From the NCBI GenBank assembly GCA_964016885.1, contig OZ024754.1, positions 21,204,001 to 21,268,000 of the forward strand: a DNA stretch of 64,000 nucleotides, written 5' to 3'. The position numbers were made by a program, and so were the translations under genes. This document shows, in pieces, positions 9,703-62,300 of this stretch (the first letter of the stretch is position 1; every line of letters starts with the position of its first letter). The DNA is from Eledone cirrhosa. Lineage: Eukaryota. The notes beneath the pieces were generated by a model. That model saw only the letters and a list, made by a program, of their open reading frames with translations. It was not told the DNA's origin and did no database searches.

Positions 9703-9859
9703 CGACATATATATATTTCGTTTCTGAATTTGTTTAGCAAGATTCTTTATATGAAAACGTGTGCCTATTTTCAATAAGGTATCCCCCTACTATAATAAAG
9801 CCCTTCAAAATAGCGGATTTAGCGAACCGATTAAGTACATACCCAACAATACTAACTCC

Positions 9860-14177: not shown

Positions 14178-14239
<62 letters not shown>

Positions 14240-14241
14240 AT

Positions 14242-14307
<66 letters not shown>

Positions 14308-14309
14308 CT

Positions 14310-19225: not shown

Positions 19226-19236
19226 GAGATAGATAA

Positions 19237-19328
<92 letters not shown>

Positions 19329-19329
19329 A

Positions 19330-22052: not shown

Positions 22053-22129
<77 letters not shown>

Positions 22130-22167
22130 CAGATAGATAGATAGATTGATAGATAAATAGATAGATA

Positions 22168-23226: not shown

Positions 23227-23237
23227 ATAGATAGATA

Positions 23238-24822: not shown

Positions 24823-24823
<1 letters not shown>
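23238..24823 (-). mobile_element. Tx1-clade LINE copy E (RT thumb to 3' end)
   Basis: GAKLNRDKS, VKLLGVWF, LSLKGRAEV, GGLGMP, C-terminal zinc motif; bounded by GATA repeats. Confidence 0.92.
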
Positions 24824-24884
<61 letters not shown>

Positions 24885-25408
24885 AAGGATAGTTAGATAC
24901 ATAGATATTATAAGACATATATATCCTACAATCAAGCTTAAACCCTTTTTGATAGATTAATAGGTAGATAGCTAGATGGATAGGTAGATAGATAGACAAA
25001 TAGATAGATAGTAAGAGTATGAAGTGAAATTATAAGGGGAGGGCATAGAATGGATATAGACAATCACACAAAGATAACTTGTCTCTCATGTATTTGTATA
25101 CATTATATATAAATATATAAGTTCATATAAGTAAATATAAGGTGAGCCATAATTTGATTATGGAATACTGACAAACAATAATAATGGCCTCTTACAAAAC
25201 AGACATTTAATGTAACTACACATTAACTGAAACGAATTGACCATGTATTACTTTTCTATTAAAGTTTAGTATCATTATGGTTTGTTTGTTTTTTAATAAC
25301 ATTTCATGACAGTAGACTACTAAGATTATGACATACACTGTACATAATAGGTGTAACACAAGTACAAACATGTCTGTATTCATCATCTCTGTTGTTTTAA
25401 TGTCTGCT

Positions 25409-27960
25409 TTCCCTGCTAGCAAGGTGTTGGACAGGTTTATATAGACCAAGTCAGTACTGAAGTGGTCCACTTTCCCCACTAGCAAGGGTTGGACAAGTCT
25501 ACATAGACCAAGTCAGTACTGAAGTGGTCCACTTTCCCTACTAGCAAGAGTTGAACAAGTCTACATAGACCAAGTCAGTACTGAAGTGGTCCACTTTCCC
25601 TACTAGCAAGAGTTGGACAAGTCTACATAGACCAAGTCAGTACTGAAGTGGTCCACTTTCCCTACTAGCAAGGGTTGGATAGGTTTATATAGACCAAGTC
25701 AGTACTGAAGTGGTCCACTTTCCCCACTAGCAAGGGTTGGACAAGTCTACATAGACCAAGTCAGTACTGAAGTGGTCCACTTTCCCTACTAGCAAGGGTT
25801 GGATAGGCTTATATAGACCAAGTCAGTACTGAAGTGGTCCACTTTCCCTACTAGCAAGAGTTGGACAAGTCTACATAGACCAAGTCAGTACTGAAGTGGT
25901 CCACTTTCCCTACTAGCAAGGGTTGGATAGGTTTATATAGACCAAGTCAGTACTGAAGTGGTCCACTTTCCCTACTAGCAAGAGTTGGACAAGTCTACAT
26001 AGACCAAGTCAGTACTGAAGTGGTCCACTTTCCCTACTAGCAAGAGTTGGACAAGTCTACATAGACCAAGTCAGTACTGAAGTGGTCCACTTTCCCTACT
26101 AGCAAGGTGTTGGACAGGTTTATATAGACCAAGTCAGTACTGAAGTGGTCCACTTTCCCTACTAGCAAGAGTTGGACAAGTCTACATAGACCAAGTCAGT
26201 ACTGAAGTGGTCCACTTTCCCTACTAGCAAGGTGTTGGACAGGTTTATATAGACCAAGTCAGTACTGAAGTGGTCCACTTTCCCCACTAGCAAGGGTTGG
26301 ACAAGTCTACATAGACCAAGTCAGTACTGAAGTGGTCCACTTTCCCTACTAGCAAGAGTTGGACAAGTCTACATAGACCAAGTCAGTACTGAAGTGGTCC
26401 ACTTTCCCTACTAGCAAGAGTTGGACAAGTCTACATAGACCAAGTCAGTACTGAAGTGGTCCACTTTCCCTACTAGCAAGGGTTGGATAGGTTTATATAG
26501 ACCAAGTCAGTACTGAAGTGGTCCACTTTCCCTACTAGCAAGAGTTGGACAAGTCTACATAGACCAAGTCAGTACTGAAGTGGTCCACTTTCCCTACTAG
26601 CAAGAGTTGGACAAGTCTACATAGACCAAGTCAGTACTGAAGTGGTCCACTTTCCCTACTAGCAAGGGTTGGACAGGTTTATATAGACCAAGTCAGTACT
26701 GAAGTGGTCCACTTTCCCTACTAGCAAGAGTTGGACAAGTCTACATAGACCAAGTCAGTACTGAAGTGGTCCACTTTCCCTACTAGCAAGGGTTGGATAG
26801 GCTTATATAGACCAAGTCAGTACTGAAGTGGTCCACTTTCCCTACTAGCAAGAGTTGGACAAGTCTACATAGACCAAGTCAGTACTGAAGTGGTCCACTT
26901 TCCCTACTAGCAAGGGTTGGACAAGTCTACATAGACCAAGTCAGTACTGAAGTGGTCCATTTTCCCTACTAGCAAGGGTTGGACAGGTTTATATAGACCA
27001 AGTCAGTACTGAAGTGGTCCACTTTCCCTACTAGCAAGAGTTGGACAAGTCTACATAGACCAAGTCAGTACTGAAGTGGTTCATTTTCCCTACTAGCAAG
27101 GGTTGGATAGGTTTATATAGACCAAGTCAGTACTGAAGTGGTCCACTTTCCCTACTAGCAAGAGTTGGACAAGTCTACATAGACCAAGTCAGTACTGAAG
27201 TGGTCCATTTTCCCTACTAGCAAGGGTTGGACAGGTTTATATAGACCAAGTCAGTACTGAAGTGGTCCACTTTCCCTACTAGCAAGAGTTGGACAAGTCT
27301 ATATAGACCAAGTCAGTACTGAAGTGGTCCACTTTCCCTACTAGCAAGGGTTGGACAAGTCTACATAGACCAAGTCAGTACTGAAGTGGTCCACTTTCCC
27401 TGCTAGCAAGGGTTGGACAAGTCTACATAGACCAAGTCAGTACTGAAGTGGTCCACTTCCCCTGCTAGCAAGGGTTGGACAGGTTTATATAGACCAAGTC
27501 AGTACTGAAGTGGTCCACTTTCCCTGCTAGCAAGGGTTGGACAGGTCTACTTAAACCCAATCAGTACTGAAGTGGTCCACTTTCCCTACTAGCAAGGGTT
27601 GGACAGGTCTACTTAAACCCAGTCAGTACTGAAGTGGTCCACTTTCCCTGCTAGCAAGGACAGGTCTATATTGATCAAGTCAGTGTTGAGGTAGTCCACT
27701 TTCCCTACTAGCAAGGGTTGGACAGGTCTATATTGATCAAGTCAGTGCTGAGGTAGTCCACTTTCCCTACTAGCAAGGGTTGGACAGGTCTACTTAAACC
27801 CAATCAGTACTGAAGTGGTCCACTTTCCCTGCTAGCAAGGGTTGGACAGGTCTATATTGATCAAGTCAGTGCTGAGGTATTCTACTTTCCCTATTAGCAA
27901 CGGTTGGACAGGTCTATATTGATCAAGTCAGTGCTGAGGTAGTCCACTTTCCCTGCTAGC
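25409..27960. repeat. 62-bp tandem satellite, ~41 copies
   Basis: Unit ggacaagtctacatagaccaagtcagtactgaagtggtccactttccctactagcaagagtt; acatagac at 25501, 25563, 25625. Confidence 0.97.
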
Positions 27961-28559
27961 ACGCTGTTCAGTCGTGTATTTTACATTACCTATTGAGTAC
28001 GCTGAGATGCAACCGGTCCTAGCATTGATACATATGCTGGGTCCGTCAACTTATTATTATATATATAGAGAGAGAGAGATAGGTAGATAGGGAGCTCATA
28101 GATAGATAGGACAACACACGGTTTTTTGTTGGGGTAAGTTTTTACTAATTTTCGTATTCTGAAAGACCAAAATACAACAAAATGTTTGCTCATTGGAAGC
28201 CGGGAATATTCTGACAAAAATATTCCATATATTCTTCAAGATTAATCTCTATTTAAAAATTTTACATTTTACGCTTACTTGTCAGCCATTGCAAAAGGCC
28301 ATAAATTCAAATTTTGAAAAGAGAGGAAAACGGAAAAGGGACAAGTGAACTATGAACTTGTACATCTCACTGCACCCCGCCACCACAATAACAATAACAA
28401 TAACGTCTACACTCGCTCCCCCACCACCACCACATAAGTCATTACCCTATCTAAGCTGGCTGACCTGTTGACTGTTGACAAACTGCTAACTCCTTTGTTG
28501 TATGTATATGTATATATACATATATGTATGTGTGTGTATATATGTATATATATATATTT

Positions 28560-30039: not shown

Positions 30040-32453
30040 TAGTGCTGGTGGCACAAATAAAAGCAGCCAGTCCATGCTGTAAAGTGGCGCTCGTGTAAGG
30101 AAGGGCATCCAACCAGTGTATCAATGCCAAAACGCTTATCAGCACAGCAACAAATAGATAAGAACAACAACAAAATATGAAGACGTCGCATCTCAGAGTT
30201 GCAACACTTAATGTTGGCACTCTCAGAGGTAGATCTGCTGAAATAGCGGAGATGCTGGAGAGAAGCCAGATCGACTTCTTACTAGTTAGGCACCGCGATA
30301 GGCAGATAGTGTCTAATACCAAGGCATACCCTGGGGAAGAATGTACCCCACAGCATAGGTTGTCGTTAGTGATATCTCAGTAAGCAAGAGATGGAATGAG
30401 ACATACAGGAAGGTGTGGAGAAGAAAGGTCTGGAAGCTAAAAGACCTTTCAATAAAATACAAATTTAGGAAAGCCCTTCAAGATGTATATGACGAAAAAG
30501 AAGACGATTTAGAGACGTATGACATAGATAATAACTGGAATTTGTTACGTGACAACTTACTGCAGGCTACTGATGAAACTTGTGGCTGGAGCAGAGCTCC
30601 AGCCAGACAGAGAGTGAGCTGGTGGTGGAACAGCACAGTAGATAAGGCCAGAGACAAAAGACTAGCATGGAAGGCTTGGAAAAAGGGTGGGAGTAGGGAA
30701 GGATATACAGCCGCTAAGAGAGAAGCTAGACGTCAGGTGTACTTAATACGCAGGGAGGATGAGAGTAGGAGGTTTTCCAATGTTCTGCGACGGGATGATC
30801 AGAGGCGTGCGGTGTTCCACATTGCAAGGCAGTGTGTCAATGCAAATCAGGATGTTGTTGGAGATAAATGTGTCCGGAATGATGCCGGTGTACTTAGTGT
30901 CACGAATGATCAGAAAAAGGAGGCCTAGAAATCTCATTATGAGAGACTGATGAATGTGGAGAACGAATGGGAGAGAGAGAAATTACCCTCAGTAGATCCG
31001 ACAGAGGGACCAGCTATTGAGATTGACGAATATAGGGTCCAAGAGGCGATTAAGGAAATGCTCTGGTGAGGAGCAATTATAGGGGTATAAAACTGATGGA
31101 TCAGGTTATGAAAGTGGCAGAAAGGATATTAGCACAACTAATTAGAGAAAGGCTCAAACTAGATGAGATGCAGTTTGGTTTTGTGCCTGGGAAGAGTACA
31201 ACATATTCCCTCTTCTTGGTGAGACGATTACAAGAGAGGTTCTTAGAGAAAAATAAGCCACTATACTTAGCCTTTGTTGACCTAGAGAAGGCCTGTGATA
31301 GGGTACCCCGATCTGTCATCTGGTGATCCCTAAGGAAACTAGATGTTGAGGAATGGCTTGTGAGGACAGTGCAAACTGTGTACAGAGGTACTGTCAGTAA
31401 AGTTAGGGTAGGAATGGAGTTTAGTGAGGAATTCTAGATACAAGTAGGAGTACATCAAGGTTCGGTCCTCAGACAGCTCTTGGTCATTATAGTCCTCCAA
31501 ACCATAACAGAGGAGTTTAAGACTGGCTGTCCATTGGAACTTCTCTATGCTGACGATCTGGTTCTTATAGCAGAATCAGTAGAGGAGCTAGAGAATAAAT
31601 TCTGGCTATGGAAACAGCAGTTGGAAGCAAGAGGACTGAGAATGAACCTAGCTAAGACAAAAGTGTTGATGAGTAGAAAAGAGGACAAAACTCTGATTCC
31701 GTCAGGGAAATGGCCATGTTCGATATGCAGAAAAGGAGCTGGCATAAATTCTATAAAATGCACACAATGCAGATCCTGGGTACACAAGAGATGTAGCGGG
31801 ATAGCAGGCAAACTAACAGGTCGAGAGAAATACGTATGCAGTAGATGTACAGGGAAATTAGTCAGTAGAATTCGCATTGATAGACACATTTTTCAAATGC
31901 AGGCGGGTGCTATAGAAATGGTGGATAAACTGCTGACGAAAGAGGGTTTCTCCCTGCGTACGAAAGGCCGGTTATATGATGCCTGTGTGAGGAGCGCGAT
32001 GCTGCATGGTAGTGAGATATGGGCAGCAACTGCAGAGGATATGTGACGGCTGGAGAGAAACGAGGCAAGCATGCTTCGTTGGATGTGCAATGTCAATGTG
32101 CGTGAACGACCCAGCATGAATGTGTTGAGAGAGAAAGTGTGTCTGAGAGAAATAGAATGTAGTGTGCGAGAGAGGAGACTGAGGTGGTATGGACATGTGA
32201 TGCGCATGGAGGATGACCGATGGGTGAAGAAGTGCCAGGAAATGCCTGTTGAAGGAAGATGTGGTAGAGGTAGACCACGAAAAACATGGGCGGAGGTGGT
32301 GAGAACAGACCTCAGATCGCTGAAGCTCACGGTGGAGATGACGAAGGACCGTGAAAAGTGGAGAGATGCTGTGCTGAATAAGACCCGTCCCACCCTTGCA
32401 AGCAGGGAAGAGCGGACGTAAAATGTTGATGATGATGATGATGATGATGATGA
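30040..32453 (+). mobile_element. RTE-clade LINE family 2, internally deleted, with (GAT)n tail
   Basis: RVATLNVGTL start, NYRGIKLMD, DLEKACDRVPR, LLYADDLVL, Cys-rich WPCSIC...CTQC..WVHKRC, RRLRWYGHV, GRPRKTW, tail gatgatgat. Confidence 0.92.
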
Positions 32454-37798: not shown

Positions 37799-38756
37799 GA
37801 CTAGACATGAAAAATGCGCAAGCTCAAAAGTGCCACAGAATGTTATAATAAACCTTCAAAAGTGTGGGACTAGAGTTGTTGCTAAAAAATATTGTAATCA
37901 TTATATATCGTACATTCTGTGGCATCTTTTATAAAAATAGCTTAAACCAACGAAGCCTTTATTTTTACGCTATTTCACTTAGTTAATTCTTAGAGTGTAA
38001 CATATAAAAATATGATTTACAACTATAAAATAAATTAATTAATATAATAACAGAGCTGCGGAGCTGAAATTTAGGAAATAATGGAGTATCGGATCCTGAG
38101 TTGGAGCCAGTCAATTTTTGGCCGACTCTGCAGCCCTGTATAATACATTTCATATTAAAGTTATTAATAAACCTATTTTACACTTCATGCAAATTACCAT
38201 GAGATATTGATATTAGATATAAGATACAGCGCAATATCTACAGCTGTAAAAGTACGAAAGCGAAGTAATAATAAGTGGCTTAAGGTAATTCCAATATGAA
38301 AGTTTGTAGTGATAAAAATTTGATAATGCAATACGATTGTTAAAATTATAGTTCTATGAAAATGTAACAATAGATAACTAAATTATTTTACTATTAGTAT
38401 ATTTAAGAAATTATCATTATAGATTTGATCGTTCATATAAGCATCATATTAAGTTTCAACACAATTATTTTGTTACTATGAGTATATGATAATAATATTA
38501 CGTAATTATTTATAGCTGTTATTACATTAAACATAGATGTATTTATTTTTATATGTTACACTCTAAGAATTAACTAAGTGAAATAGCGTAAAAATAAAGG
38601 CTTCGTTGGTTTAAGCTATTTTTATAAAGGATGCCACAGAATGTACGATATATAATGATTACAATATTTTTTAGCAACAACTCTAGTCCCACACTTTTGA
38701 AGGTTTATTATAACATTCTGTGGCACTTTTGAGCTTGCGCATTTTTCATGTCTAGT
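37799..38756. repeat. Inverted repeat, ~210-bp arms with ~535-bp spacer
   Basis: actagacatgaaaaatgcgcaagctc...catataaaaa (37800-38010) is the near-exact reverse complement of 38546-38756. Confidence 0.92.
38051..38138. mobile_element. Tiny hAT-type MITE
   Basis: Imperfect TIRs cagagctgcggag / ctctgcagccctg; 8-bp flanks tataataa / tataatac. Confidence 0.55.
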
Positions 38757-39944
38757 TTAATATTTTTTTAAGGCAACGCTTGTAATAACTCTAGTTAAAC
38801 AGGATATATATTAATAATAAATTATCGTTGTAATGTAATTAGATTATGTAATTGTTATTCTAAATTATCTTATAAATATTAGTGTAAGATGTATAAAAAT
38901 ATTTTCAGACTTTTAATATAAACAACTACAAAAAACAATCAATATTAAATCAATATATTATACATAATAGAAAACATAAAATAAACAATACAAAAACAAA
39001 ATATTTACATACAATTGCAATTATCAGTGTATATACATTTTCTTTATATTCCCTGAGCAAATTAATAAGATTTGTTTTTATTGTACATAATTTGATGACT
39101 TGTTGGAGTGTATTAAAAGATAGCAACAATTTGTGATTAAATTGTTATCTTAAGCAACTCACTTTTTAATAGTTGTTGGCTGAGCGAAATTGTAAAAGCC
39201 TATGAGCAAATATAAAAAAAAATACACAAACAACATTTCCTTGTGTTATTACAACATTAGATAAAATAATTGAGCAATGTCGTTATATTTTGCTCTTATT
39301 GCACATTAATAGTGTTTCTATTTTTCGGCACAAATCCATTACGGCAGTCCATTACTGGTACTTTATTTTATCGAATTAGTAAGTATGAAAGTCGAAGTTA
39401 ACCTCGGCAGGATTTGAACTTAGAATGCAAAGGACCATAACAATACTGCAAAGCATGGTGTATGACGCTCTACCAAAACTTGTGTTGAGCTGGTCATTAA
39501 TTTATGGTGGTCGTGCGTGGAGTAGAGCAATCGCTAGTTGACATATTATGAACAAAACATTTTTATTTGCCGAAGAACATATTTTCAATACTGTTTGTGA
39601 ATGTGACGAAGGAAATACATTCTGATATGGAACAGTGTACAAAGTGTGTCTGTGAATAACATAATGTTACCTCATGTTGTTGTCAAGACATAATGGATTT
39701 CGTATATCCAGTTAGAAGATGAAACCTAGCCATCTCGGATTAGTTATATTTCATGCCATGTGTAAACGTGTTTGAGGATAGCAAAATATGCGTGTTTCTT
39801 GTCTGGAAACTTTCTGCTAAACTGATTGGTTTCGTTTTTGGCACTATACAATACTCATCCAACAGATAGCTGTATTGGATCCTTGATTGGTTAATATTTA
39901 GGTGAGGGTGCTTGATGCAGAGTTAGTGCAAAATGGATCAATGA

Positions 39945-40600
39945 GTGTAATAATAATAATGATAATAATAATGAAAATATTGTGTACAATGCTGAGGTGC
40001 ACTACAACTCATCAAAAGTGCATATATAATACATAGGGTAATATAAAAACGTCAGGAAAAAAGAACAGTGCATGAGTCATGATATACACATATGTGCATG
40101 TGTATGGAAGGGGGACATCAGGTGTAGTTTTGGTGTATTTCGGAATGTATGATGGTTTTAAAGGATGCAGTGTGTCATCAGCTAACAACTGATGCAGGAA
40201 GTTTGTTCCATCCTTCAGCAACTCTGAGCATGAAGAAATATTTCCTAAAGTCATGGGAGCTGTGTTGTTTTCTGACTTTGTAGGCATGTCCACGTGTTAG
40301 ACACATGGAGATCAAAAAGGTGTTCGGGGTTGTTGTTGGTCGGATGGTTAATAACTTTGTGGGTGTTTACCAAGTCCATTGCCAGAGGGAAGCAAAATAT
40401 TCAGGGTATGGTAGGTGTCTGATGGAGGGTATGCGCTTGGTTGCATGTCTCTGAACAGTTTCCAGGAGGTCAATGTTCTGAGCAAGATAGGGGTTCCAGA
40501 CTGATGACGCGAACTCCAAGTGTATTCGTACCATAGATGTATACAGCTTTAAATAGATGGCTGGAGAGCAGCTAATGAAGGTCTTGCTGATTGATGCCAA
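39945..40600 (-). mobile_element. CR1-group LINE 3' fragment
   Basis: LYTSMVRIHLEFASSVWNPY...LETVQRHATKRIP is typical of CR1-group RT C-termini; (TTA)n tail at ~39949-39972. Confidence 0.8.
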
Positions 40601-42095
40601 GTCAATCTTAATAAATTGACTGATTTATCTGTTCACTACTGCTAATCCACCGCTGTTTGTACAATTTTTTAGATAATGTCAATTTGAGCTTGAATCATTG
40701 GCGTAATGAAATTTGAAAAGATTATAAGCAAATCTTTTTTAAAATACACAGACAACATTTAACTGCATCGTTGCAACATTAGATCTAATAATGGAGCAAA
40801 ATTTGTGCAGAATTATTGTTTGTGCAATAAGATATTTTTTTTTCTCCTATTGTTGATTTAAATTTCATATGTCGATTATTATAGTTGAATTAATAAAAAA
40901 ATTAAATATTACATACAAATAGTTTAACATAATAATGAAAAAAATAATCCAACATAATAATAATAAAATAATTTAACACAAAACAAACAATATAGACAAA
41001 TATACAAGTAAATATGATACAACCAATATTATAAGCATGTTATATAAATAAATCTTGTAATTTAATATATAATAGTTAATAATTACTTTTACAAAAGCAT
41101 ATTATATTGGCAAATGGACAAGTAACTATTAACTAGATCATTCATATAAAAGTAAATAAAGGTTACAATCAATATTGGAAGGTGCATTATAAAGATATGT
41201 AAATAAAAAACGTTATAATTTATTTTAATATATTTTTAAAATATAAGACTAAAAAAAAAATTTTTAAAGAAAGCATAAAATACAAAACAAAATATAGTTG
41301 ACACCACACAATGTGCAGATATATAATTTTAGTCAGCCATATTAATCCAAAGTATTAGAGGATTTTTGTGTTGCTAAAAAAGGCACAAAAATAGTGTATG
41401 TATTTTCACATAAAAGGCTTTACCTTATATAATTATCTCATATAATATTGAATCTACGAGAGTTTTATGTTATTTGTTTTGAGAAAAATACCTTACTATC
41501 AGTATGAGTGGCTAATTATGGCCAGTTTGAATAGAAAGAGGCGAGAGAATTATGGTCGGATATGGTCTCTTTAAATGCTAAAGCGCTAGAGAGTTTCTGG
41601 TACAAAAATTAATACATTGGAATTTAAAATATAATACAACATTGAAAGTAGTTGATATAATGGATAAAAAATAAAAGATTTATAAAATTAGATAATAATA
41701 GATAAAAATATGCTTAATTTAAGATAAAATATTGATAAAATTATAATACATAAAAATTGATATCATACGGAGAGTATAGTTCAGTGACAAAATGGTCACA
41801 CGAATATGGTTGAGTGACATGTGTTTTCAATATTATATCTCAAAAGGCCATAGTAGCTGCAAACCAATTTCACAATTCCCCGAGGGTAAAAAAAACAGCA
41901 GACATTCACCATGAAGATAATATATCTCAATGGTGGGACTGGATTCATATTCTAATAAATTCAGAAATGCCCTAAAGAAATAGAAACAAAGCAATAGTTA
42001 GAGATAACAAGACATCTCTCAACCTCTGTTACTTTTTCTTAGGATCAAGCAAATTTTTCAAAAAATGCTTGCTGCTGTACATTGGCGGTGAAAGT

Positions 42096-45000
42096 TCAAT
42101 TCAACTTTTCTAAAAACAACAGGTAGTTGTTAAGCAGTTTCGACGGGAAACCTATATACTGCTTGGAAAAAACGGCATCGTTAATAATGTCCCATCTGTC
42201 CTGATTGCGGACGATGCTGGTGTAGTGCCCGGAGTCTGCACTAGCCAGTGAATGCAAGACGGAGCCGATTAGTCGGAATTTTTGGCCGTAAATGCTCTGC
42301 TTGTTCGGAGAGAAATTCATCAACTCAGAATCAATTCTGATCATCTGATTGTTTGTATATTCGAATCTATTCAAATAAACAACCAAGTAACGCATTGTGT
42401 TTGGAAATACATGGTTAACTGTACCAAAGTGCTCGGTGTCAATGCCACACAGATCGCATCTCTTAATGAGCGAAACATCAGTTTTGAGCAAGCTTTTGAA
42501 TTGCTGCCGACCATTAACAGGCTGCAACGTCAGATCAGACTTGACATCAGTTATATGTGTGCAAGTGCCACAGCCGTTGATCGATGCACAATAACATTCA
42601 TCATTGTGCAATCTGGGGCAATTGTGCTCGTGTTTTCTAGTGCAGCTGAGCCAAGTATTTTCCTCAAAGGTGAATAGTTGTTTAATTTTTTTAGAGAACA
42701 ACTGATAAATGTGCTTCCAAAAATCGTGCGCACACTGTTGGGTACCATTATTAAACCTGCCACCGAGAATATTTCTCAAATTTGCGACCGATTTAGTTCC
42801 AGATGACGATATAATATCGCTAATTTCACGAATAGCAACATCATCAGTGGACTGAATGTGTTCAACCAACAACACCAGCTGGCGTATAACTTGCATGGTG
42901 CTGTTTACAAAGCAAGCATTTCTCTCATTGATCAGCGAAATGTACGGCTTTGCAACCGTTTTCTCAGTTCTGGCCTTTTTTGGATTCGCCAAGTTGACCA
43001 TTCCACTGTCAATATTAATAGCAAATTTACTTTTTTTAGTTGCTTTTTTGGCCTGTCCAATACTGTTGGGCCTCACGTTACACAATGGAAGCGGTCCCAT
43101 ATTAATGGTCTCTCTCAAATAATTGTATTCTCTCCAAGCACTAGAGTCGCACATGATCAAACTCGTTGGATCAAGATCAATCAAGTAAACATTGCACAGT
43201 TTGCGGGCTCTAGACAAGGCTACATAGGCCATACCGTCTGCAAAAACGCCAGTGCCCAAATCAACAACGACTCCATCGACACTTATTCCCTGTGATTTGT
43301 GGATGGAAATTGCATATGCAATGCACAAGGGATATTGTTCTCTAGTGATAAAAACACTAGGAGACAATTCGTAATCGGCTTTGACACGTTTGATGGCAAC
43401 AATTTGGTTTGTACTCTCAAAGAGAACGTCAATGGAAGTAATTTTTCCAAACTCATAATTGAGTTGCTTTACAGTTCCCATTGCACCATTGCACAAGCCT
43501 TTCTCAAGATCGATGTTGCGTTTAAGCATAACTCGAGCATTAACGCCAACTTTAAGAACAGTTTCAAGGCCAGCAGTATCAGAAGTCTTTTTAGTGGTCA
43601 GCTTTTTTCTTATTGTTTTCTTTTGACATTTGGTTTGCCTCATATTCGAATCAATAGCCATAAGTTCAACGGTATTAATGCCAAGTTTATTGAGCATTGC
43701 AGCGTTAAACTTTTCTACTGACTCGTTTAGAGGCATGATACAGACGATACTCAAATTAGAAGTCTGTATCAGCTCACACATTTTGTAAGCAACCTGATCA
43801 ATGGAAGCTTTGCCGTTGAGATCAATTCTATGCTTATTTAGAATTTCAATATCTGAATCAAGTGGTGAACCCAGCCTTATTCGGCCGAGCATGTCAACAT
43901 AATTATCCAAGTCTTCTTTCTGACGCATGTTGACTGTCAACTCGTCGTACTTGAAGTACCTCCACAAATGGTGGCTGCTGACGCCTATGCATGATCTTTG
44001 TGCATCTTGGTGAGTAACTTTGTTAAACACCGGCTTTTCTCTAACAGGCGGTAATTGAAGCAAATCTCCAAAAACAACAATGTTCATTCGCCCGAAAGGA
44101 GAAATGCCTTGGGCAAAGTCACAAAACAATTGGCACAATCTCAAGTGAATGAATGCCAACTGCAAATGACTGACCATGCTAATCTCATCGATTATGATCA
44201 GTCGGACATATTGAAGCCCCATCCTCAGCATTTTCAAAAAGTCCTTTGGTAGATCATCGTACACGGGAGTTTTACCGTGCTGCACTTTGAGCTTTAGCAT
44301 TCGATGAACAGTCATGCCGTTGAGTTGGAAAGCAGCCATTCCTGTGGGTGCCGATATCACTACGCTCGGGCCATTGTCATTTGGATACATGTACTGAATT
44401 TTATCAGCCAGTACATTTATCAAAAAACTCTTGCCCGTGCCACCAACACCTGAAACAAATTTCAAGACTTGTGGACAATCATCGCAACTACATCTCGGAT
44501 AAGGTTTGCTGTTGTCCCAATGTTTGTCTTGTTTGTCAATACCGGCAACGATATCGTCATAAATTTTTCTTTGCACTTCATTCAGTTTATTTTCTTTATG
44601 CCTCAGTGCATCCTCATTGACATCTCTCATGCAAGGCAAATCGACATTAGCATCATCAACTGCCAACGCCTCCATGTGATCACCGCAAGAATGGTCATCA
44701 TTATCATGAGACTGAGGTTCGTTTTGAATATGTTTGGCTTGTTCCAGCGCATTCTCCAAACGTTTGCGCACATTCTGGAACCTGACCATTTCAGATAAAT
44801 GGTTTGCACACTGTTCAAAAGACTCTTTATAAGTCTCACAACCTCCCAGCAAGTCTTTTTCCTCGTCTCGCCAAGGTTTAAAGAGTATAAGCAGGTTGTG
44901 GTGATAGCGCTCACAGGTATCTGCAGTCAATCTAATGTTTGGCGACTTCACAATCCGCTCTTTCACAGATTTGAAATAGCCAAGATTATTTCTCAACCTG

Positions 45001-45305
45001 AAGTCGTCATCAAAATTGCTGTTACCAATTGGATTCACATGTTCGTATTTACTCGCAAGTTCATACAAACACATGTGCTCCATCGAATCAGGCCTGTTTG
45101 GATACCAATTTTCGACCATATTCTCGTAATAAAGATCGGTAGAATACGGTTTCAATTTATCCAGTTCATACTGAGGCCTGAACCTGTGGGATCGGTAACT
45201 AGGCAAATCGGCCCCAATCCAAATGAGGCTTTCAGAGCATCCATAAAAATGGTGGCCAAGCAATTTGTCTGCAGCCTCATAGGCACCTGTATCACGCTTG
45301 CCCAT
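42096..45305 (-). CDS. C-terminal part of Helitron-class RepHel: PIF1-family helicase fused to USP (peptidase C19)-like domain
   Basis: SGVGGTGKS, IIIDEISMV, FGDLLQLPPV, YAISIHKSQG, YVALSRA; then LINERNACFVNSTMQ, QQCAHDF, SGHYTSIVR...WDIINDA. In frame with the upstream ORF. Confidence 0.9.
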   Translation of the reverse strand: MGKRDTGAYEAADKLLGHHFYGCSESLIWIGADLPSYRSHRFRPQYELDKLKPYSTDLYYENMVENWYPNRPDSMEHMCLYELASKYEHVNPIGNSNFDDDFRLRNNLGYFKSVKERIVKSPNIRLTADTCERYHHNLLILFKPWRDEEKDLLGGCETYKESFEQCANHLSEMVRFQNVRKRLENALEQAKHIQNEPQSHDNDDHSCGDHMEALAVDDANVDLPCMRDVNEDALRHKENKLNEVQRKIYDDIVAGIDKQDKHWDNSKPYPRCSCDDCPQVLKFVSGVGGTGKSFLINVLADKIQYMYPNDNGPSVVISAPTGMAAFQLNGMTVHRMLKLKVQHGKTPVYDDLPKDFLKMLRMGLQYVRLIIIDEISMVSHLQLAFIHLRLCQLFCDFAQGISPFGRMNIVVFGDLLQLPPVREKPVFNKVTHQDAQRSCIGVSSHHLWRYFKYDELTVNMRQKEDLDNYVDMLGRIRLGSPLDSDIEILNKHRIDLNGKASIDQVAYKMCELIQTSNLSIVCIMPLNESVEKFNAAMLNKLGINTVELMAIDSNMRQTKCQKKTIRKKLTTKKTSDTAGLETVLKVGVNARVMLKRNIDLEKGLCNGAMGTVKQLNYEFGKITSIDVLFESTNQIVAIKRVKADYELSPSVFITREQYPLCIAYAISIHKSQGISVDGVVVDLGTGVFADGMAYVALSRARKLCNVYLIDLDPTSLIMCDSSAWREYNYLRETINMGPLPLCNVRPNSIGQAKKATKKSKFAINIDSGMVNLANPKKARTEKTVAKPYISLINERNACFVNSTMQVIRQLVLLVEHIQSTDDVAIREISDIISSSGTKSVANLRNILGGRFNNGTQQCAHDFWKHIYQLFSKKIKQLFTFEENTWLSCTRKHEHNCPRLHNDECYCASINGCGTCTHITDVKSDLTLQPVNGRQQFKSLLKTDVSLIKRCDLCGIDTEHFGTVNHVFPNTMRYLVVYLNRFEYTNNQMIRIDSELMNFSPNKQSIYGQKFRLIGSVLHSLASADSGHYTSIVRNQDRWDIINDAVFSKQYIGFPSKLLNNYLLFLEKLN

Positions 45306-45419
45306 CAGCTTAAGTCCGACACTCTTGTATCTGGAGTAAATGGACTTGGACTTGTCAATCTCAGCCCAAATACCTTCAGTTTCAGTCTTTTCGGACTTTG
45401 TCTGATAACTAGTAACATA

Positions 45420-48400
45420 TCAGTTTAGAATCATGCTATCTTCACCGATGTATTGGATATCGACATTAGCTTTCCAGACATACAGAACAACAGGATTGTA
45501 GTCATTGATGCACTCTTCCCCTTGTCGTCTGTCAAGCTTGTACAACTTTTTGACAGCTCTACCTTTGTGTCGAGATTTTATGCACTCGTTGACGCTAAGC
45601 AAATTGAAATTCCCGATAGGACGAGGAAATCCAAACCTGCATCGAGTGTAAAAACGACCACTCGAAAATATTTGCCTTTTGCAGGATCCACTACACACAT
45701 GTCGTTGAAAACGCAACACCAAGTCTGACAAAACGGGGCTTTCTACATTGGACGGCATGCGACATGTGATCATGGACTGTATAAACGTCTGAATAGCATA
45801 CTTGTCGTCTCTGTCCATAATAGGGCCATCTTTAATCCATAATTTCATATGAACATGCGGAGCACCTCTCATTTGGTATTCCAACCTCCAAAAAAAGTGC
45901 TCGACAATACCAAACGGAGAATTGGTATGTTTAACAACTTCTTTCATAAAGGTGGTGAACCGATGGTGAAAATGTTCGCTAACAGCCACCACGTCATCCG
46001 CGCACAACTCATTGGTGCGTTTTCCAGAAATGTCTGGTATGTCAGCATTCAACTTTTCCAGGAACTCTCTCAGATCAGGCCAAAAGTACTCTGCACAAGA
46101 CAAAGTTAAGAACAAGTGGGCCGGGCCAAATTTCTCGTCCATAGCCATCAAGTCTGAACATTTTCTAGACCAAAACTGCTTGGAACCACGGACATTGGCC
46201 ATCATCATATTTAAATTGCCCTCTAGGTGCCTGTCATTTTCATGAAGCCGCCTTCTAAACTCGCTTATAGTCATGCGGCTGTTTTTGGTGGTCTTCATGA
46301 TGGCATATATACCAGAATCAATGCCTCTCTTGTCGGCTTTATCAAGACAAAACATGAGATATTGTATATCTCGCCGAAATCTAGAGTCGCTATGATTCAG
46401 TCTGTTTCTTATGAACATGTATGGCTTTACAGCGCCAAACGGTCTATTGTCCACGAAAATGCCAAACTGACCAGTTGGATAAAGACAAGGAAAGCACAAC
46501 AACTCAAGTTTTTTATCATTGTCTGCAATGAAATCGCCTTCCACTCTTTTCATTTTGTACAAAGCCAAGTCAGTGTCTGCAGGGAGACACGGATTCATGT
46601 CTTTAACAGTGTGATGCTCATAGGTAATGCCAGCATTCGATTTAAGTAAAAGATTATCGAATTTGGCATTATTAACTCCCGAGCACTCGACAATGTTTTC
46701 ATTTTCCGTATCGGCGTAGCGATTGATCTTAACATCGGCATACATTACATTGTTTGCTGCAAGCCAATCAAGTGCCTTCAATACTTTACTCATGTCTACC
46801 ATTGAACGCCAGATAATTTGTTTCCGCGAAGGCAAGCTATCAACGACTATTTTAAGCATGTCGTCTTGAAGCGCAGGTAACGTATCCATGGTGCGGTTAA
46901 TAGTTCCGTCCATAGGCAAAGGCAAGTGAATTGCAATTCCTTTAATAGCGGAAATGCATGCTGAAATATTGCCTTTGAATGAGTATGGCACCAGTTTTAT
47001 TACATTGACGAAACATTTGGCCCGTTGTACAAGTATTCGCTCATATGTATTAAGATCAGCAAGTTCTTTGGGAACGGCAGCAACGCCCAAGCCATTTATT
47101 GAGGCCATTGAAGGCACCCCACTGTTTCGCAAATGTGTAGTGCATGTTGTGCAGACTGTGCAAGGCAAAGAGTAGTTGGCAGTTATTGCATCCTTTGCAA
47201 CGGCCGTTTTAAAATATCTAGAGTTCCAATTATCCCAAACTTTTAGTTCCTTGCTATATTTGTGCAGTTTGCAGATATGACAATGTTGGATTTTATAGTT
47301 GGTAATTTCAGATTGAAATCTTTGAACTTGATTACCATATTTATGAATGACATCTGCATCAGTGTGTTCGACATCATTGAAACCAGTGCACATATTATTG
47401 AATTTAACTGCAATAGCACGCTCAATGTTGGCAACGTCTGTCAAATTCTCAAAGTTGGTCCAATCGCCATTGAAAACAGCTTCATTGTACTTGTTGAGCC
47501 AAATACATAAGGACCGAACTTTATAAATTTTCCTCAGCAATGTGCGCAACTTTGGCGAGTGAACTGCTATGGATTTTAAAAAGCCAAATTCACTGGTGCA
47601 GCCAGTTTGACCGATGCAGTGCTGATCATTATCATGAGTAACATTGCAAAACTCATATTTCTCGATCAACTGCCTTATTTCAGCAACTGTCATATCGGGA
47701 TTGAGTTTTGGAAGTTTATCATCAATTCTTTGGCACAAAGTTAGACGAGTAGCTGAGTCATTTGGACATGTATCTAATATGGAAGACCCGCAAGGTCTAA
47801 CCAAACATTTAGACACATCATTATCATCATTCTGCTCGTCAGCATTAGCCATGTCATTCACAATGTTGTCTGTCTCCTTATTATTGATAACGACTATTCG
47901 GACTTTCTCAACGGACTGATTTTTAAACTCATCCATTTTCATGTACTTTGCAGTGCTCTTGTCAAAATTAGGAAGCTCATTGGTGGAACTGTGATAATGT
48001 TGATTTCCCCAATAATGCAACAAACCGTTAGCATTGATCTTTTCCATCAATGTATGCACAGCTTTAACATTTATTTTTAATTGAGCACACACAAAATTTC
48101 GCATCCCAACAGATCTGGAGAACACACTCAGCACGTGACTATATGCGTCGTTGCGAAGATTGGTATCTGTTATTGTCTTTTTATATGACTTAACAAATTG
48201 GGACATCAAGATCTGATGCTGCATCCGGAAGTCAACCATTTTATTTAGTTTCTTCATTTGATACAAAGACCGCTTATGAAGAAACTTTTTTTTATAATAT
48301 GTTTTCTCATAAGACTGTATATTATCTTTATGGTGAATTTTATACATAGCCTTTGTTTGTAATACTTTGTCTTGATTTGCAGATCTGTACTTGGTCTGCT

Positions 48401-48773
48401 CTTTAGCCAACTCGGTACGTTTAGAAGCTCTACGCTCGGCTTGCTTTTGAGATATAATAGCTGAATTTGCAGATCTATACTTGGCCTGCTTGTTTGCCAA
48501 CTCATACCGTTTTGAACATCTATACTTGGCCTGTTTTTGTCTCAACTTCTCCCGATTCCGCATCCGGTAAGCTGCTTTCACATCCAATTTAATATGCCCA
48601 TCTAGATTATTAGCACAGGAATGTGAACAAGCTTGTGGGACCGCATCATTGTAAGTATATGAACTGCCTGCAACATCAAGACCCAATTCACAAGTGCAGC
48701 GTTGCTCATTCACATCGGCAGTGGGGACACCAAAATCAGTGACAGGTCTCGATTCACTCGCGAGATACATCAC
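45420..48773 (-). CDS. N-terminal part of Helitron-class RepHel (HUH Rep)
   Basis: RGSKQFW...FGPAHLFLTLSCAE, WRLEYQMRGAPHVHMKLW (HUH), CRFGFPRP, INDYNP...ANVDIQYI; Cys pairs and a VPKELADLNTYERILV segment upstream. Ends at a TGA just before YVTSYQTK. Confidence 0.9.
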   Translation of the reverse strand: MMYLASESRPVTDFGVPTADVNEQRCTCELGLDVAGSSYTYNDAVPQACSHSCANNLDGHIKLDVKAAYRMRNREKLRQKQAKYRCSKRYELANKQAKYRSANSAIISQKQAERRASKRTELAKEQTKYRSANQDKVLQTKAMYKIHHKDNIQSYEKTYYKKKFLHKRSLYQMKKLNKMVDFRMQHQILMSQFVKSYKKTITDTNLRNDAYSHVLSVFSRSVGMRNFVCAQLKINVKAVHTLMEKINANGLLHYWGNQHYHSSTNELPNFDKSTAKYMKMDEFKNQSVEKVRIVVINNKETDNIVNDMANADEQNDDNDVSKCLVRPCGSSILDTCPNDSATRLTLCQRIDDKLPKLNPDMTVAEIRQLIEKYEFCNVTHDNDQHCIGQTGCTSEFGFLKSIAVHSPKLRTLLRKIYKVRSLCIWLNKYNEAVFNGDWTNFENLTDVANIERAIAVKFNNMCTGFNDVEHTDADVIHKYGNQVQRFQSEITNYKIQHCHICKLHKYSKELKVWDNWNSRYFKTAVAKDAITANYSLPCTVCTTCTTHLRNSGVPSMASINGLGVAAVPKELADLNTYERILVQRAKCFVNVIKLVPYSFKGNISACISAIKGIAIHLPLPMDGTINRTMDTLPALQDDMLKIVVDSLPSRKQIIWRSMVDMSKVLKALDWLAANNVMYADVKINRYADTENENIVECSGVNNAKFDNLLLKSNAGITYEHHTVKDMNPCLPADTDLALYKMKRVEGDFIADNDKKLELLCFPCLYPTGQFGIFVDNRPFGAVKPYMFIRNRLNHSDSRFRRDIQYLMFCLDKADKRGIDSGIYAIMKTTKNSRMTISEFRRRLHENDRHLEGNLNMMMANVRGSKQFWSRKCSDLMAMDEKFGPAHLFLTLSCAEYFWPDLREFLEKLNADIPDISGKRTNELCADDVVAVSEHFHHRFTTFMKEVVKHTNSPFGIVEHFFWRLEYQMRGAPHVHMKLWIKDGPIMDRDDKYAIQTFIQSMITCRMPSNVESPVLSDLVLRFQRHVCSGSCKRQIFSSGRFYTRCRFGFPRPIGNFNLLSVNECIKSRHKGRAVKKLYKLDRRQGEECINDYNPVVLYVWKANVDIQYIGEDSMILN

Positions 48774-48833
48774 AGCTACACTATATATTTAAACATATAT
48801 ACAGTGATACCTCGCTACTTGGCGGTTCATACG

Positions 48834-48878
<45 letters not shown>

Positions 48879-48966
48879 TAAGTAATTAATACCGTATAAA
48901 TGGTACAAAGACTGTTTATGTAAAATGTATTTCTCAACAGAGCATTGAATACTTAGGAGAAATTCA

Positions 48967-49131
48967 AAACGAAGAGTGATAAAATTTTCAAGCAAAGAGT
49001 TTAATTAGGTAATGACTTACAAATTTGTTTCAGTATATAGACAAAGCCTGAAGCGTTAATTATAATAATTAGTTAATAATATTACAAAATATACCTAATT
49101 AAACTCTTTGCTTGAAATTTTATCATTCTTC

Positions 49132-49135
<4 letters not shown>
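48967..49135. repeat. Inverted repeat (~45-bp arms) between (TA)n tracts
   Basis: aaacgaagagtgataaaattttcaagcaaagagtttaattaggta / tacctaattaaactctttgcttgaaattttatcattcttcgttt. Confidence 0.85.
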
Positions 49136-49220
<85 letters not shown>

Positions 49221-50575
49221 GAGATTTATCTAGTCCTTCGCTCAAGATTAATCTATAAGTTTAGATGTTTGCCTTCGTTTAAGTAAATATTACAGTAAGA
49301 TTTTTAATATAAACAACTACAAAAAACAATTAATATTAAAACGAAAAAATTATCAATGATAAAAGAAGCGGATGCAACTTTTTTTTTTATAAAGTTATAT
49401 TCCTGTTTCTTTAAAGAACATTTCATTTTTGTTCTATTGTAGGCGAAATAATGCAATGGTTTAATAGGGAAGATATAACTTACGAATTATGTCTCTAACC
49501 GTGTAACGCTTTTTAAGTAGATAACTACAATTGAAAATACTAAAGAAATGGAACCAACAATTCAATTTGAAAGTCGTCTAGTGACAGTGTATTACTGGTA
49601 CTTTATTTTATCGACCCCGTAACGATGAAAGGCAAAAATGCAAATGCTTAAAATTTAAATTGCCTTAATTCTATCGTCTGCTGTTTCATTAAAGGGAGAT
49701 TATCGTCTGTATTTAATTCTATCGTCTACTGTTCCACTAAACAGATATACCTCCACTATCGTCTCTATTTATACATTTTAACTTATAACTTATACACATT
49801 TGATTTGAAATATTTTATCTAGTCCCCCCTCTCAATATTATGATGATTTCTTTCGAATGAAACAGTTCTAGTCCTGTAGAAGCCATTTATATATATAATT
49901 GAACTGAGTTAAAAATTCACAATATTTATAATTAAATAAGCTCATATATATATGTGTGTATTTATCTGTTTATTGTATTATATATAATGTGTGTATATAC
50001 AGGATGTCCCCCAAAAATATATACACACTTCAACAGCATTCTAATAACTATTGCCTGTACAGGTAATCAAAGTGTCAATCGAATGTTAGTTTCGTGTTTT
50101 AACAGTACAAATTTACAATACACACATAAAACCAGTGTATATACATACATGAGTGTGTATACACATACATGAATGTGTATATACAATATATATGTATATA
50201 TATATATATAGACACATATATTCACGGTGCAACGGTACATTAAAATATAGATGCGGGAGAGGGGGGGGTGTATATATAGGGGCGCTGGGGATAAAGGAGT
50301 GTAAAGCGTGTGTAATTGATATATTGAAGGAGAGGAGCGTGCAGCGACAGAGTAACAAATATATAGAGAGGGGGAGAGATGGTATTGAAGGGGAGGAGTG
50401 CAAAGCGAAAGAGTAAGAGATATAAATAGAGACGGAACAGATAGAGAGAAACAGGCGTAAGTAACAGTGGAAGAGATATAGAGAGAGGTACTCTGATTGG
50501 TTGAAAATTAGCCAATGACATACGATCACCACCACGGCTATCCCCGAAAAATTTTTAGATAAGCTAGGCATATAT

Positions 50576-50628
50576 GTTAGAACACGAAAAGTGAACATTC
50601 TGTTGTTTCACACTTTTCGTGTTCTAAC
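50576..50628. repeat. Perfect 18-bp stem hairpin
   Basis: gttagaacacgaaaagtg ... cacttttcgtgttctaac. Confidence 0.85.
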
Positions 50629-51409
50629 AGATACTCCACCCTGATTACACCTTCAGATTTATGCCTGTGATTGTTGGGGCACTGGGGTATGTTAGTAACT
50701 GCCTCAATACAAATCTTGAGTAGCTAGGCTTCACAGGAACAGAAAGAACACAACTAGTTAGGAAATTACAAGTACAATCCATTAATGGAACAGTAAAAAT
50801 ATGTAAAACATTCCAAAAATGTTGCATCTAATAACTGCATATACACATGTACAGATACAAAGCATATACACATGCACACATACAACTCAAAACATCCACA
50901 TCCACACATACAATAACATCCATATCTACACATGCATGCATACATACATATCTACCTAGTTGATGTTGTGTAAATTCCAATGGGAGAGTCTTGTGTCTAT
51001 CTTAGAAACCGACTCTCTCTCTCTATTGGTAAAACTTTGTGAAATTATAAAACCAGAAGAACATACATACATGCATATATACAGTATTCTACATCTGAAA
51101 CACATTTGTCTTGAAAATAATTTATTGGACTAGTGGGGGGGGGTAGAGAGGAGGAGGAGATGAGTGTGAGGGAGATAGGGAAGAGAGGAGATTGGGTGAG
51201 GAAAGGAGGGAGAAGAAGGGTAGAGAGATGGGATTGAGGGGCTATGGGTGGGGGTAGATGGGAGGGGGAGATATAGGGAAGAAGAGGGTAGAGTAGGGAG
51301 ATGGGATAGAGGGAAAGGAGGGAGCGAGAGAGGTGAGGGTAAAACAGAAAAACAACTTCATATTTGGTGAAAAACTATCAGCCCAAAACTAATTATAATC
51401 AACAGTAAG

Positions 51410-59361: not shown

Positions 59362-62300
59362 AGGTACACATTGTAGAGCTAACCAAGGGTGTTAAATACC
59401 CAGGTACACACTGTAGAGCTAGCTAACCAAGGGTACTAAATACCCAGGTACACATTGTAGAACTAATCTAGGTTGCTGAATACCCAGGTACACATTGTAG
59501 GGCTAATCTAGGGTGTTAAATACCCAGGTACACATTGTAGAGCTAACCAAAGGTGCTAAATACCCAGGTACACATGGTAGAACTAATCTAGGGTGTTAAA
59601 TACCTAGGTACACATTGTAGAGCTAACAAAGGGTGCTAAATACCCAGGTACACATTGTAGAACTGATCCAGGGTGTTAAATACCCAGGTACACATAGTAG
59701 AGCTAACCAAGGGTGCTAAATACCCAGGTACACATTGTAGAACTAATCTAGGTTGCTGAATACCCAGGTACACATTGTAGGGCTAATCTAGGGTGTTAAA
59801 TACCCAGGTACACATTGTAGAGCTAACCAAAGGTGCTAAATACCCAGGTACACATGGTAGAACTAATCTAGGGTGTTAAATACCTAGGTACACATTGTAG
59901 AGCTAACAAAGGGTGCTAAATACCCAGGTACACATTGTAGAACTGATCCAGGGTGTTAAATACCCAGGTACACATAGTAGAGCTAACCAAGGGTGCTAAA
60001 TACCCAGGTACACATTGTAGAACTAATCTAGGGTGTAAAATACCCAGGTACACATTGTAGAGCTAATCAAGGGTGCTAAATACCCACATACACATTGTAG
60101 AGCTAACCAAGGGTGCTAAATACCCAGGTACACATTGTAGAACTAATCTAGGGTGTTAAATACCCAGGTACACATTGTAGAGCTAACCAAGGCTGCTAAA
60201 TACCCAGCTACACATTGTAGAGCTAATCTAGGGTGCTGAATATCCAGGTACACATTGTAGAGCTAATCTAGGGTGTTAAATACCCAGGTACATATTGTAG
60301 AGCTAACCAAGGTTGCTAAATACCCAGGTACACATTGTAGAGCTAATCTAGGGTGTTAAATACCCAAGTACACATTGTAGAGCTAACCAAGGGTGCTAAA
60401 TACCCAGGTACACATTGTAGAGCTAATCTAGGGTGCTGAAAACCCAGGTACACATTGTAGAGCTAATCTAGGGTGTTAAATACCCAGGTACACATTGTAG
60501 AGCTAACCTAGGGTGTTAAATGCCCAGGTACACATTGTAGAGCTAACCAAGGGTGCTAAATACCCAGGTACACATTGTAGAGCTAATCTAGGGTGTTAAA
60601 TACCCAAGTACACATTGTAGAGCTAACCTAGGGTGTTAAATGCCCAGGTACACATTGTAGAGCTAACCAAGGGTGCTAAATACCAAGGTACACATTGTAG
60701 AGCTAATCTAGGGTGTTAAATACCCAGGTACACATTGTAGAGCTAACCTAGGGTGTTAAATGCCCAGGTACACATTGTAGAGCTAACCAAGGGTGCTAAA
60801 TACCCAGGTACACATTGTAGAGCTAATCTAGGGTGCTGAATACCCAGGTACACATTGTAGAGCTAATCTAGGGTGTTAAATACCCAGGTACACATTGTAG
60901 AGCTAACTTAGTGTGTTAAATACCCAGGTACACATTGTAGAGCTAACCTAGGGTGTTAAATACCCAGGTACACATAGAGCTAATCTAGGGTGTTAAATAG
61001 CCAGGTACACATTGTAGAGCTAACCTAGGGTGTTAAATACCCAGGTAAACATTGTAGAGCTAACCTAGGGTGTTAAATACCCAGGTACACATTGTAGAGC
61101 TAACCTAGTGTGTTAAATACCAATATAAACATTGTAAAGCTAATCTAGCGTGCTAAATACCCAGGTACACATTGTAGAGCTAATCTAGGGTGCTAAATAC
61201 CCAGGTAAACATTCTAGAGCTAACCTAGTGTGCTAAATACCCAGGTAAACATTCTAGAGTTAACCTAGTGTGCTAAATACCTAGGTAAACATTTTAGTGA
61301 TAACCTAGTGTGCTAAATGCCCAGGTAAATATTCTAGAGCTAACCTAGTGTGCTAAATACCTAGGTAAACATTTTAGTGATAACCTAGTGTGCTAAATAC
61401 CCAGGTAAACATTCTAGAGCTAGCTTAGTGTGCTAATTACACAGGTAAACATTCTAGAGTTAACCTAGTGTGCTAAATGCCCAAGTGTACATTGTAGAGC
61501 TAACCTAGTGTGCTGAATACCTAGGTACACATAGTAGAGCTAATCTAATGTCCTCAATACGCAGGTACACATTATAGAGCTAACCTAGGGTGTTAAATAC
61601 CCAGGTAAACATTGTAGAGCTAATCTAGATGGTTAAATACCCAGGTACATATTGTAGAGCTCACCTAGTGTGCTAAATACCCAGGTAAACATTCTAGAGC
61701 TAACCGAGTGTGCTAAATACCCAGGTAAACATTCTAGAGCTAATCTAGTGTGCTAAATACGCAGGTCAACATTCTAGAGCTAGCCTAGTGTGCTAAATAC
61801 CCAGATAAACATTCTAGAGCTAACCTAGTGTGCTAAATACCCAGGTAAACATTTTAGTGTTAACCTAGTGTGCTAAATACCCAGGTATACATTCTAGAGT
61901 TAACCTAGTGTGCTAAATACCCAGGTACACATTGGAGAGCTAACCTAGGGTGTTAAATACACAGGTACACATTTTAGAGCTAACCAAGGGTGCTAAATAC
62001 CCAGGTACACATTGTAGAGCTAATCTAGGGTGCTGAATACCCAGGTACACATTGTAGAGCTAATCTAGGGTGTTAAATACCCAGCTACACATTGTAGAGC
62101 TAACTTAGTGTGTTAAATACCCAGGTACACATTGTAGAGCTAACCTAGGGTGTTAAATACCCAGGTACACATTATAGAGCTAATCTAGGGTGTTAAATAC
62201 CCAGGTACACATTGTAGAGCTAACCTAGGGTGTTAAATACCCAGGTACACATTGTAGAGCTAACCTAGGGTGTTAAATACCTATGTAAACATTGTAGAGC

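Follow-up and report, generated by a model that had tools for sequence, protein, structure and literature searches.

In this study, we analysed a 64,000-nucleotide stretch of the Eledone cirrhosa genome (contig OZ024754.1, positions 21,204,001 to 21,268,000; "the window" below means this whole stretch) and found an HLE2-type (Helitron2-like) element whose Rep-helicase (RepHel) transposase runs in the same frame into a C-terminal ubiquitin-specific protease (USP, peptidase C19). Structural models and conservation make it quite possible, if not quite probable, that this tail is an active deubiquitinase working on its own DNA-bound transposase. The gene and its parts are as follows.

42096..48770, minus strand: RepHel-USP gene, 2224 aa in intact sibling copies, split by one stop in the window copy
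46722..47120, minus strand: DUF6570, Pfam E 8.4e-18
45405..46415, minus strand: HUH Rep nuclease (Helitron_like_N), Pfam E 7.5e-29
45849-45857 and 45405-45419, minus strand: HVH and YxxxY, which we take to be the HUH Rep catalytic motifs
45420-45422, minus strand: premature TGA, CGA in siblings
43206..44462, minus strand: PIF1 (SF1B) helicase, Pfam PIF1 E 1.2e-24, also Pif1_2B and UvrD_C_2
42099..42950, minus strand: USP/peptidase C19 domain with N8, C13, H242 and N257/D258, and conserved finger cysteines C103, C165 and C168
42927-42929, minus strand: oxyanion Asn
42912-42914, minus strand: catalytic Cys codon TGC
42225-42227, minus strand: His codon CAC
42177-42182, minus strand: Asn257/Asp258

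The window carries this gene as two long minus-strand frames, 45420-48788 and 42096-45419, which are equal in phase and have a single stop between them. The first holds DUF6570 and Helitron_like_N, and the second holds PIF1, a basic linker and then, in its last 284 aa, the UCH domain; the initial annotation had described this order in one frame and had placed the catalytic Cys and His codons exactly. The separating TGA stands one codon before the YxxxY motif, so the product of the window copy would be without the catalytic tyrosines, the helicase and the USP. Twelve of the 13 other copies read CGA at this position, and one was unmatched by the probe. The split was not attributed to a frameshift, an intron or an alternative code, all of which were excluded, since the halves are in frame and the siblings have CGA. 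Judged by its reading frame, the window copy is broken and non-autonomous through the TGA. Separately, a basic 15/30-aa repeat lies in the N-terminus (48375-48539), with an extra unit in some copies (2245 versus 2230 codons).

Sibling copies demonstrated that the fusion belongs to the family. Searched with the USP domain, the 3.0-Gb genome yielded 128 candidates and, from these, 106 matches; 15 of the matches, the window copy included, were 99-100% identical across all 284 aa. Seven of these 15 lie within an open frame of 2230-2245 codons spanning Rep, PIF1 and USP, and all seven were confirmed; these intact siblings are 99.4-100% alike. The initial annotation had named absence of the fusion from sibling copies as a possible refutation; its presence at 15 loci answers this and also excludes an assembly chimera. 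Coding identity among family copies is 99.1-100%, which implies very recent movement of the family. Among named proteins, the nearest comes from Octopus bimaculoides (70%). A third, older group with about 40% aa identity (L065-L069, L077, L078) was observed as well, all seven copies of which match only from residue ~1530-1560 onward; by this shared boundary, the group is an amplified deletion derivative that retains half of the helicase and the USP.

The extent and ends of the element were defined by copy comparison, in which similarity spans 50633 to ~37800.

37801..50631, minus strand: whole HLE2-type element, 12,831 bp, 5'-TC...CTAG-3'; sibling similarity stops there
50575..50629, minus strand: 5' terminal hairpin with a 19-bp outer stem, DNA fold -21.3 kcal/mol (a value without shuffle control); identical sequence in 13 loci
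50594-50603, minus strand: left short inverted repeat, within the 5' hairpin loop
37835..37844, minus strand: 10-bp subterminal inverted repeat on the right, lying 34 nt in from the 3' end, identified by eye
38544..38770, plus strand: internal inverted copy of the element's own terminal ~225 bp, 97% complementary

The insertion point is TA|T and a target duplication is absent: TA precedes TC at all 13 loci having the 5' end, and T follows CTAG at all 13 loci having an intact 3' end. One sibling sits in a tandem array, where removal of TC...CTAG restores the 8-nt TA spacer exactly (ends placed one base over would be formally equivalent). Paralogues of the left flank of the window copy read on TA-TCT, in agreement with the first three bases of its right flank, and then diverge into a microsatellite. 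Through the 10-bp inverted repeat, the hairpin loop pairs with the site near the 3' end. In the same genome, a second family (~48% aa identity) shows by eye an equal end plan, with a 13-bp inverted repeat and CTAG/CTGG ends.

Several further structures were recorded in and around the element. The inverted copy at 38544-38770, 530 bp inside the element, is found in siblings and in one non-autonomous derivative and is missing from two deletion copies. The 3' non-coding part contains short frames at 40128-40624 that are common to siblings and presumably resemble a LINE reverse-transcriptase tail. A 3.8-kb non-autonomous derivative of the window's family with both ends present (L094, G000:C28 near 136.46-136.47 Mb) lies directly downstream of a second-family coding copy and is followed by a second-family 5' end. 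Outside the element, the window contains degenerate retrotransposon pieces at 3616-4990, 13474-24956 and 31438-32046 (RVT_1, zf-RVT, endonuclease and zinc knuckle, with one RT followed by a PHD finger) and tandem arrays at 8893-9703 (183 bp), 25407-27961 (62 bp) and 59362-64000 (40 bp).

Compared with known systems, the element combines features of two classes. Rep HUH and PIF1 lie within one protein and the terminal inverted repeats are short and asymmetric (10 bp, and 13 bp in the second family, by eye), as in HLE2, and DUF6570, an HLE2 marker (PMC11417382), is present, which is not the case for an HLE1-type transposase. In place of canonical HLE2 ends, the element has a TA|T target, TC...CTAG ends and a strong 5' hairpin; the 5' TC, 3' CTRR and A|T target are those of HLE1. 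Pfam did not find Exo_endo_phos, the C-terminal AP endonuclease of Helentrons, and the USP occupies that place. By its domains and termini, the element is an HLE2 protein with HLE1-like ends. This plan agrees with the published descriptions, by which the comparison was made, of the proto-Helentron (PMC4067079), which likewise has an HLE2 protein without endonuclease, a CTAG 3' end, an A|T target, a 5' stem-loop and short inverted repeats but is from Phytophthora, an oomycete, and starts with TT rather than TC. It is also close to the fungal HLE2-reverse elements FoHeli3-5 of Fusarium, with their 5' stem-loop and short inverted repeats (PMC5148889; PMC11417382). No mention of a USP was found in the available parts of these three accounts, and HELIANO reported nothing proto-Helentron-like in 404 genomes (PMC11417382).

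The initial annotation had considered a C-terminal USP unusual, which stands for the in-frame fusion and not for the domain as such, because UCH in HLE2 and deubiquitinases in Helitrons are known (PMC11417382; PMC9741609). HELIANO (2024) names 20 domains as stably captured; UCH is one of these, is enriched in subgroups c and d of HLE2, and also counts as one of 17 domains in separate ORFs, mainly in lungfish and axolotl elements (PMC11417382). Our element resembles HLE2 c/d, compared by description, in its HLE2 transposase, DUF6570 and stably carried Pfam UCH (PF00443), and differs in having UCH in frame instead of in a separate ORF; the available parts of that account treat UCH without residue, fold or selection analysis (PMC11417382). 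Helentron elements with VTD or OTU also hold a deubiquitinase domain within the RepHel frame, but they bear an AP endonuclease, whereas our element has its USP behind the helicase and no AP endonuclease (PMC9741609). A description of an in-frame RepHel-USP fusion was not found in the literature listings and selected papers searched, which lie outside most subscription journals, Repbase and Dfam, and an Octopus vulgaris repeat paper that counts recently active Helitrons does not, in its available parts, appear to mention ubiquitin (PMC13282606). The in-frame fused form thus appears to be undescribed.

Profile and fold searches confirmed the C19/USP assignment, which had first been made from motifs. 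The 284-aa piece matches a single Pfam family, UCH PF00443, scoring 48 bits where the gathering cut-off is 23.9 (E 1.6e-12) and covering positions 3-238 of the 254 in the profile, and a single-sequence PDB search placed USP15 first (E 2e-4) with other USPs beneath. AlphaFold2 gave a USP fold from an 82-sequence alignment (pLDDT 91.7, pTM 0.89) and a pLDDT of 32.5 from the single sequence; the alignment-based model was adopted, and its support is not independent of the many cellular-type USPs in that alignment, which helped it toward the fold. A PDB profile search with such an alignment is circular and was excluded from the evidence. All 37 Foldseek rows shown were USPs, the best being USP21 (E 3e-18, TM 0.79, 19% identity). 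The model shares with cellular USPs (USP21, USP2, USP12/46) the palm-thumb-fingers fold and the Cys and His boxes at TM 0.75-0.80; unlike them, it is a compact 284 aa with 15-19% identity, QQC for QQD and a Cys/His-rich insertion at residues 104-129. That insertion (42564-42641), within the first finger CxxC and of low pLDDT, is common to the second family and missing from other homologues, and it is possibly a second metal site.

In the alignment, the triad is intact as had been proposed (Asn8/Cys13/His242/Asp258). The expected Cys and His boxes were found, but QQCAHDF stands in place of the QQDAxEF motif, with D replaced by C; Cys is at that place in 6 of 21 homologues as well. Among 22 fused homologues, the window copy included, Cys is kept in 21, His in 22 and Asp in 21; among 37 distinct genomic loci (40 rows with 3 duplicates, from families ~40-100% alike) the counts are 36, 37 and 35, respectively. 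In addition, a predicted complex of the USP with host ubiquitin scored 0.69 versus 0.00 for the best of three controls, and runs shared at least 94% of contacts with a partner pLDDT of at least 87; among reference pairs, the mark for this score is attained by 51 of the 78 that are solved and by 2 of the 108 that are mismatched (for eukaryotes, 39 of 65 and 2 of 126, respectively). The predicted interface takes in the ubiquitin tail 70-76 and USP residues 11-14 and 239-243. Because USP-ubiquitin complexes have already been solved, this prediction shows likeness only. On the evidence as a whole, the domain is probably an active ubiquitin or ubiquitin-like isopeptidase.

Comparison of codons between copies showed selection on the USP part. 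When the window's family was set against the codons on which two copies of an 88% subfamily agree, 250 codons of the USP part held 20 non-synonymous and 19 synonymous changes, a dN/dS of 0.28 (binomial p 2e-4); the same comparison gave 0.18 for the helicase, 0.14 for Rep and 0.39 for the N-terminus. In the second family the USP reached 0.38 (p 2e-4) and the helicase 0.13. A codon filter on local identity could lower these values; single-copy comparisons, in which all 284 USP codons passed the filter, gave 0.34-0.36 for the USP. These ratios indicate that the USP part is under purifying selection, weaker than that on helicase and Rep (0.28-0.38 versus 0.13-0.18). Besides, L062 compared with L060, L063, L064 and L070-L073 showed a pS of 0.15 in the USP versus 0.28-0.30 in the helicase, and this roughly halved value suggests a later exchange of tails between subfamilies.

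These data also bear on the explanation that the tail is a non-catalytic ubiquitin-binding module or a captured passenger of little function. Its constraint is weaker than that of the helicase, QQD is altered, and a few relatives are without Cys or His: P0059 has Cys changed to Ser, P0051 is affected in the first of its two USP domains, and P0044 is without a His box. We nevertheless regard it as unlikely, as the triad is kept over homologues ~25-30% alike and in-genome families ~40-46% alike and dN/dS is well under 1.

The Rep+PIF1+UCH architecture, which the initial annotation had proposed to look for elsewhere, was recovered widely. A protein search with residues 780-2224 of an intact sibling gave 223 matches, and 21 of the 120 listed carry PF00443; on rescanning, 19 of these 21 had UCH behind PIF1, one had it N-terminally and one fell below threshold. 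The named hosts of fused proteins are Rhodnius, Linepithema, Bemisia, Prorops and the sponge Dysidea, at the protein level, where some could be spliced models; the fused form is present, unremarked, in public insect and sponge protein sets. The fusions were brought up by the RepHel-wide query, whereas a word-index query of longer proteins with the USP region alone (611 candidates) recovered nothing. None of the 21 UCH-bearing proteins has OTU, VTD or AP endonuclease alongside. One Rep-PIF1-USP protein, P0002, comes from a 7-kb contig filed under a Gammaproteobacteria MAG and is likely misbinned animal DNA.

Classified with profiles built on the tails themselves, the regions behind the helicase in the 120 listed relatives were USP in 26, OTU in 38, Ulp1-like in 10 (one full-length member, P0069, the nine others stopping before the catalytic residues), AP endonuclease in 24, none in 21 and other in 1. 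In a midpoint-rooted helicase tree of 119 sequences (P0072 and P0099 left out for short coverage), our element and 74 relatives form one clade (support 0.91), and 71 of the 74 have a protease tail: USP in 26, OTU in 35 and Ulp1-like in 10. OTU tails of this clade keep Cys in 34 of 35 and His in 32 of 35, the remainder being truncated. An N-terminal OTU or USP occurs in P0072, P0076 and P0075. USP tails are basal and scattered in the tree, OTU tails form two groups and Ulp1 tails one; deep nodes are weak (0.31-0.49), and the order and number of swaps in this slot are tentative.

A self-processing protease that would cut the 2224-aa protein into Rep, helicase and protease, as the initial annotation had also suggested and as was proposed for the Helitron OTU (PMC4067079), finds a candidate site in the LLGG that the two families of this genome carry between Rep and helicase. 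The relatives speak against it: LxGG occurs at the equivalent site in 0 of 20 USP-tailed relatives with a locatable site, on which cleavage at LxGG was rejected, and GG is missing from the window's helicase-USP linker and present in only 4 of 26 relatives. We consider this explanation very improbable.

As for function, host SUMO and ubiquitin marks on DNA-protein crosslinks lead to destruction by SPRTN or the proteasome. HUH Reps become linked to DNA in a 5'-phosphotyrosine adduct (PMC5876387). For a viral HUH-DNA adduct, recruitment of PARP1 and SPRTN has been observed in vitro, and DNA-protein crosslinks become ubiquitylated and SUMOylated (bioRxiv 10.64898/2026.01.09.698661). The host might read the covalent Rep-DNA adduct as such a crosslink while the helicase would keep RepHel on DNA during more than 10 kb of unwinding, and the tethered USP could then strip the ubiquitin mark from the DNA-bound transposase in cis. 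A slot open to ubiquitin and SUMO enzymes alike would fit the reversal of a two-step SUMO/ubiquitin mark. We favour this shielding in cis, a function that the initial annotation had raised, on the basis of profile, fold, triad conservation, dN/dS, slot exchange, adduct chemistry and the Helitron VTDs, which are active deubiquitinases that cut K48 and K63 chains (Erven et al., PMC9741609). The authors of that study suggested that a DUB activity benefits Helitrons and can come from different enzyme classes. Given an active isopeptidase, we lean slightly towards the element's own transpososome as the main substrate.

Other observations stand against shielding in cis: the USP is less constrained than helicase and Rep, the QQD Asp has become Cys, some relatives are without catalysis, OTU and USP can also sit N-terminally (P0072, P0076, P0075), and 24 of the 120 relatives end in AP endonuclease while 21 have no tail. 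The HLE1 element Helraiser reportedly transposes in cells without a protease tail, and together with the tail-less relatives this suggests that the protease is dispensable for rolling-circle transposition as such. To our knowledge, DDE transposases form no covalent adduct. Similar tails on DDE transposases such as Ginger1 (PMC2836005) therefore favour a more general role.

Such a role could be played in trans by an active deubiquitinase directed at host chromatin ubiquitin, PCNA or fork-repair signalling, or silencing and degradation factors, or by one stabilising free transposase. USP21, USP12 and USP46 have histone roles, and they are among the best fold matches, at 15-19% identity that assigns no subfamily. 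Ginger1 transposases have a C-terminal OTU or Ulp1 but never both, Mutator DDE transposases bear OTU/Ulp1 tails as well, and one transposase of Trichomonas has a C19 domain fused to it (PMC2836005). Our element's clade resembles Ginger1 in the mutually exclusive Ub/SUMO protease at the transposase C-terminus and differs in being HUH rolling-circle instead of DDE cut-and-paste (PMC2836005), and the separate UCH ORFs of HELIANO need no tether (PMC11417382). In contrast, the C-terminal fusion that 19 of the 21 relatives with UCH retain at the applied Pfam threshold and the persistence of the slot through swaps between unrelated folds argue against action in trans. On balance, action in trans on host chromatin or repair is possible, and nearly as likely as the role in cis.

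Extending shielding in cis to the whole clade, we tentatively propose, with reservations about each part, an animal-wide HLE2 clade in which an exchangeable Ub/SUMO-protease slot would shield the Rep-DNA adduct, with proto-Helentron-like ends seen here for the first time in an animal. Within this proposal, the USP would tentatively be the earliest tail, replaced about twice by OTU and once by Ulp1.

The question of why transposases carry ubiquitin and SUMO proteases goes back to 2010 or earlier (PMC2836005) and was unsolved in 2022 (PMC9741609). The natural copies described here are 99.9% alike, with an intact frame and defined ends, and so allow a whole-element test by one Cys-to-Ala change. 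The in-frame fusion corrects the published view of UCH outside the RepHel frame and extends the USPs by a compact, highly divergent lineage. End-based annotation tools could misclassify animal elements of this kind, in which HLE2 proteins go with TC...CTAG ends. What gives the finding its value is the in-frame fusion, together with the exchange of three tail types in one slot, the unusual ends and the availability of young copies that are intact.
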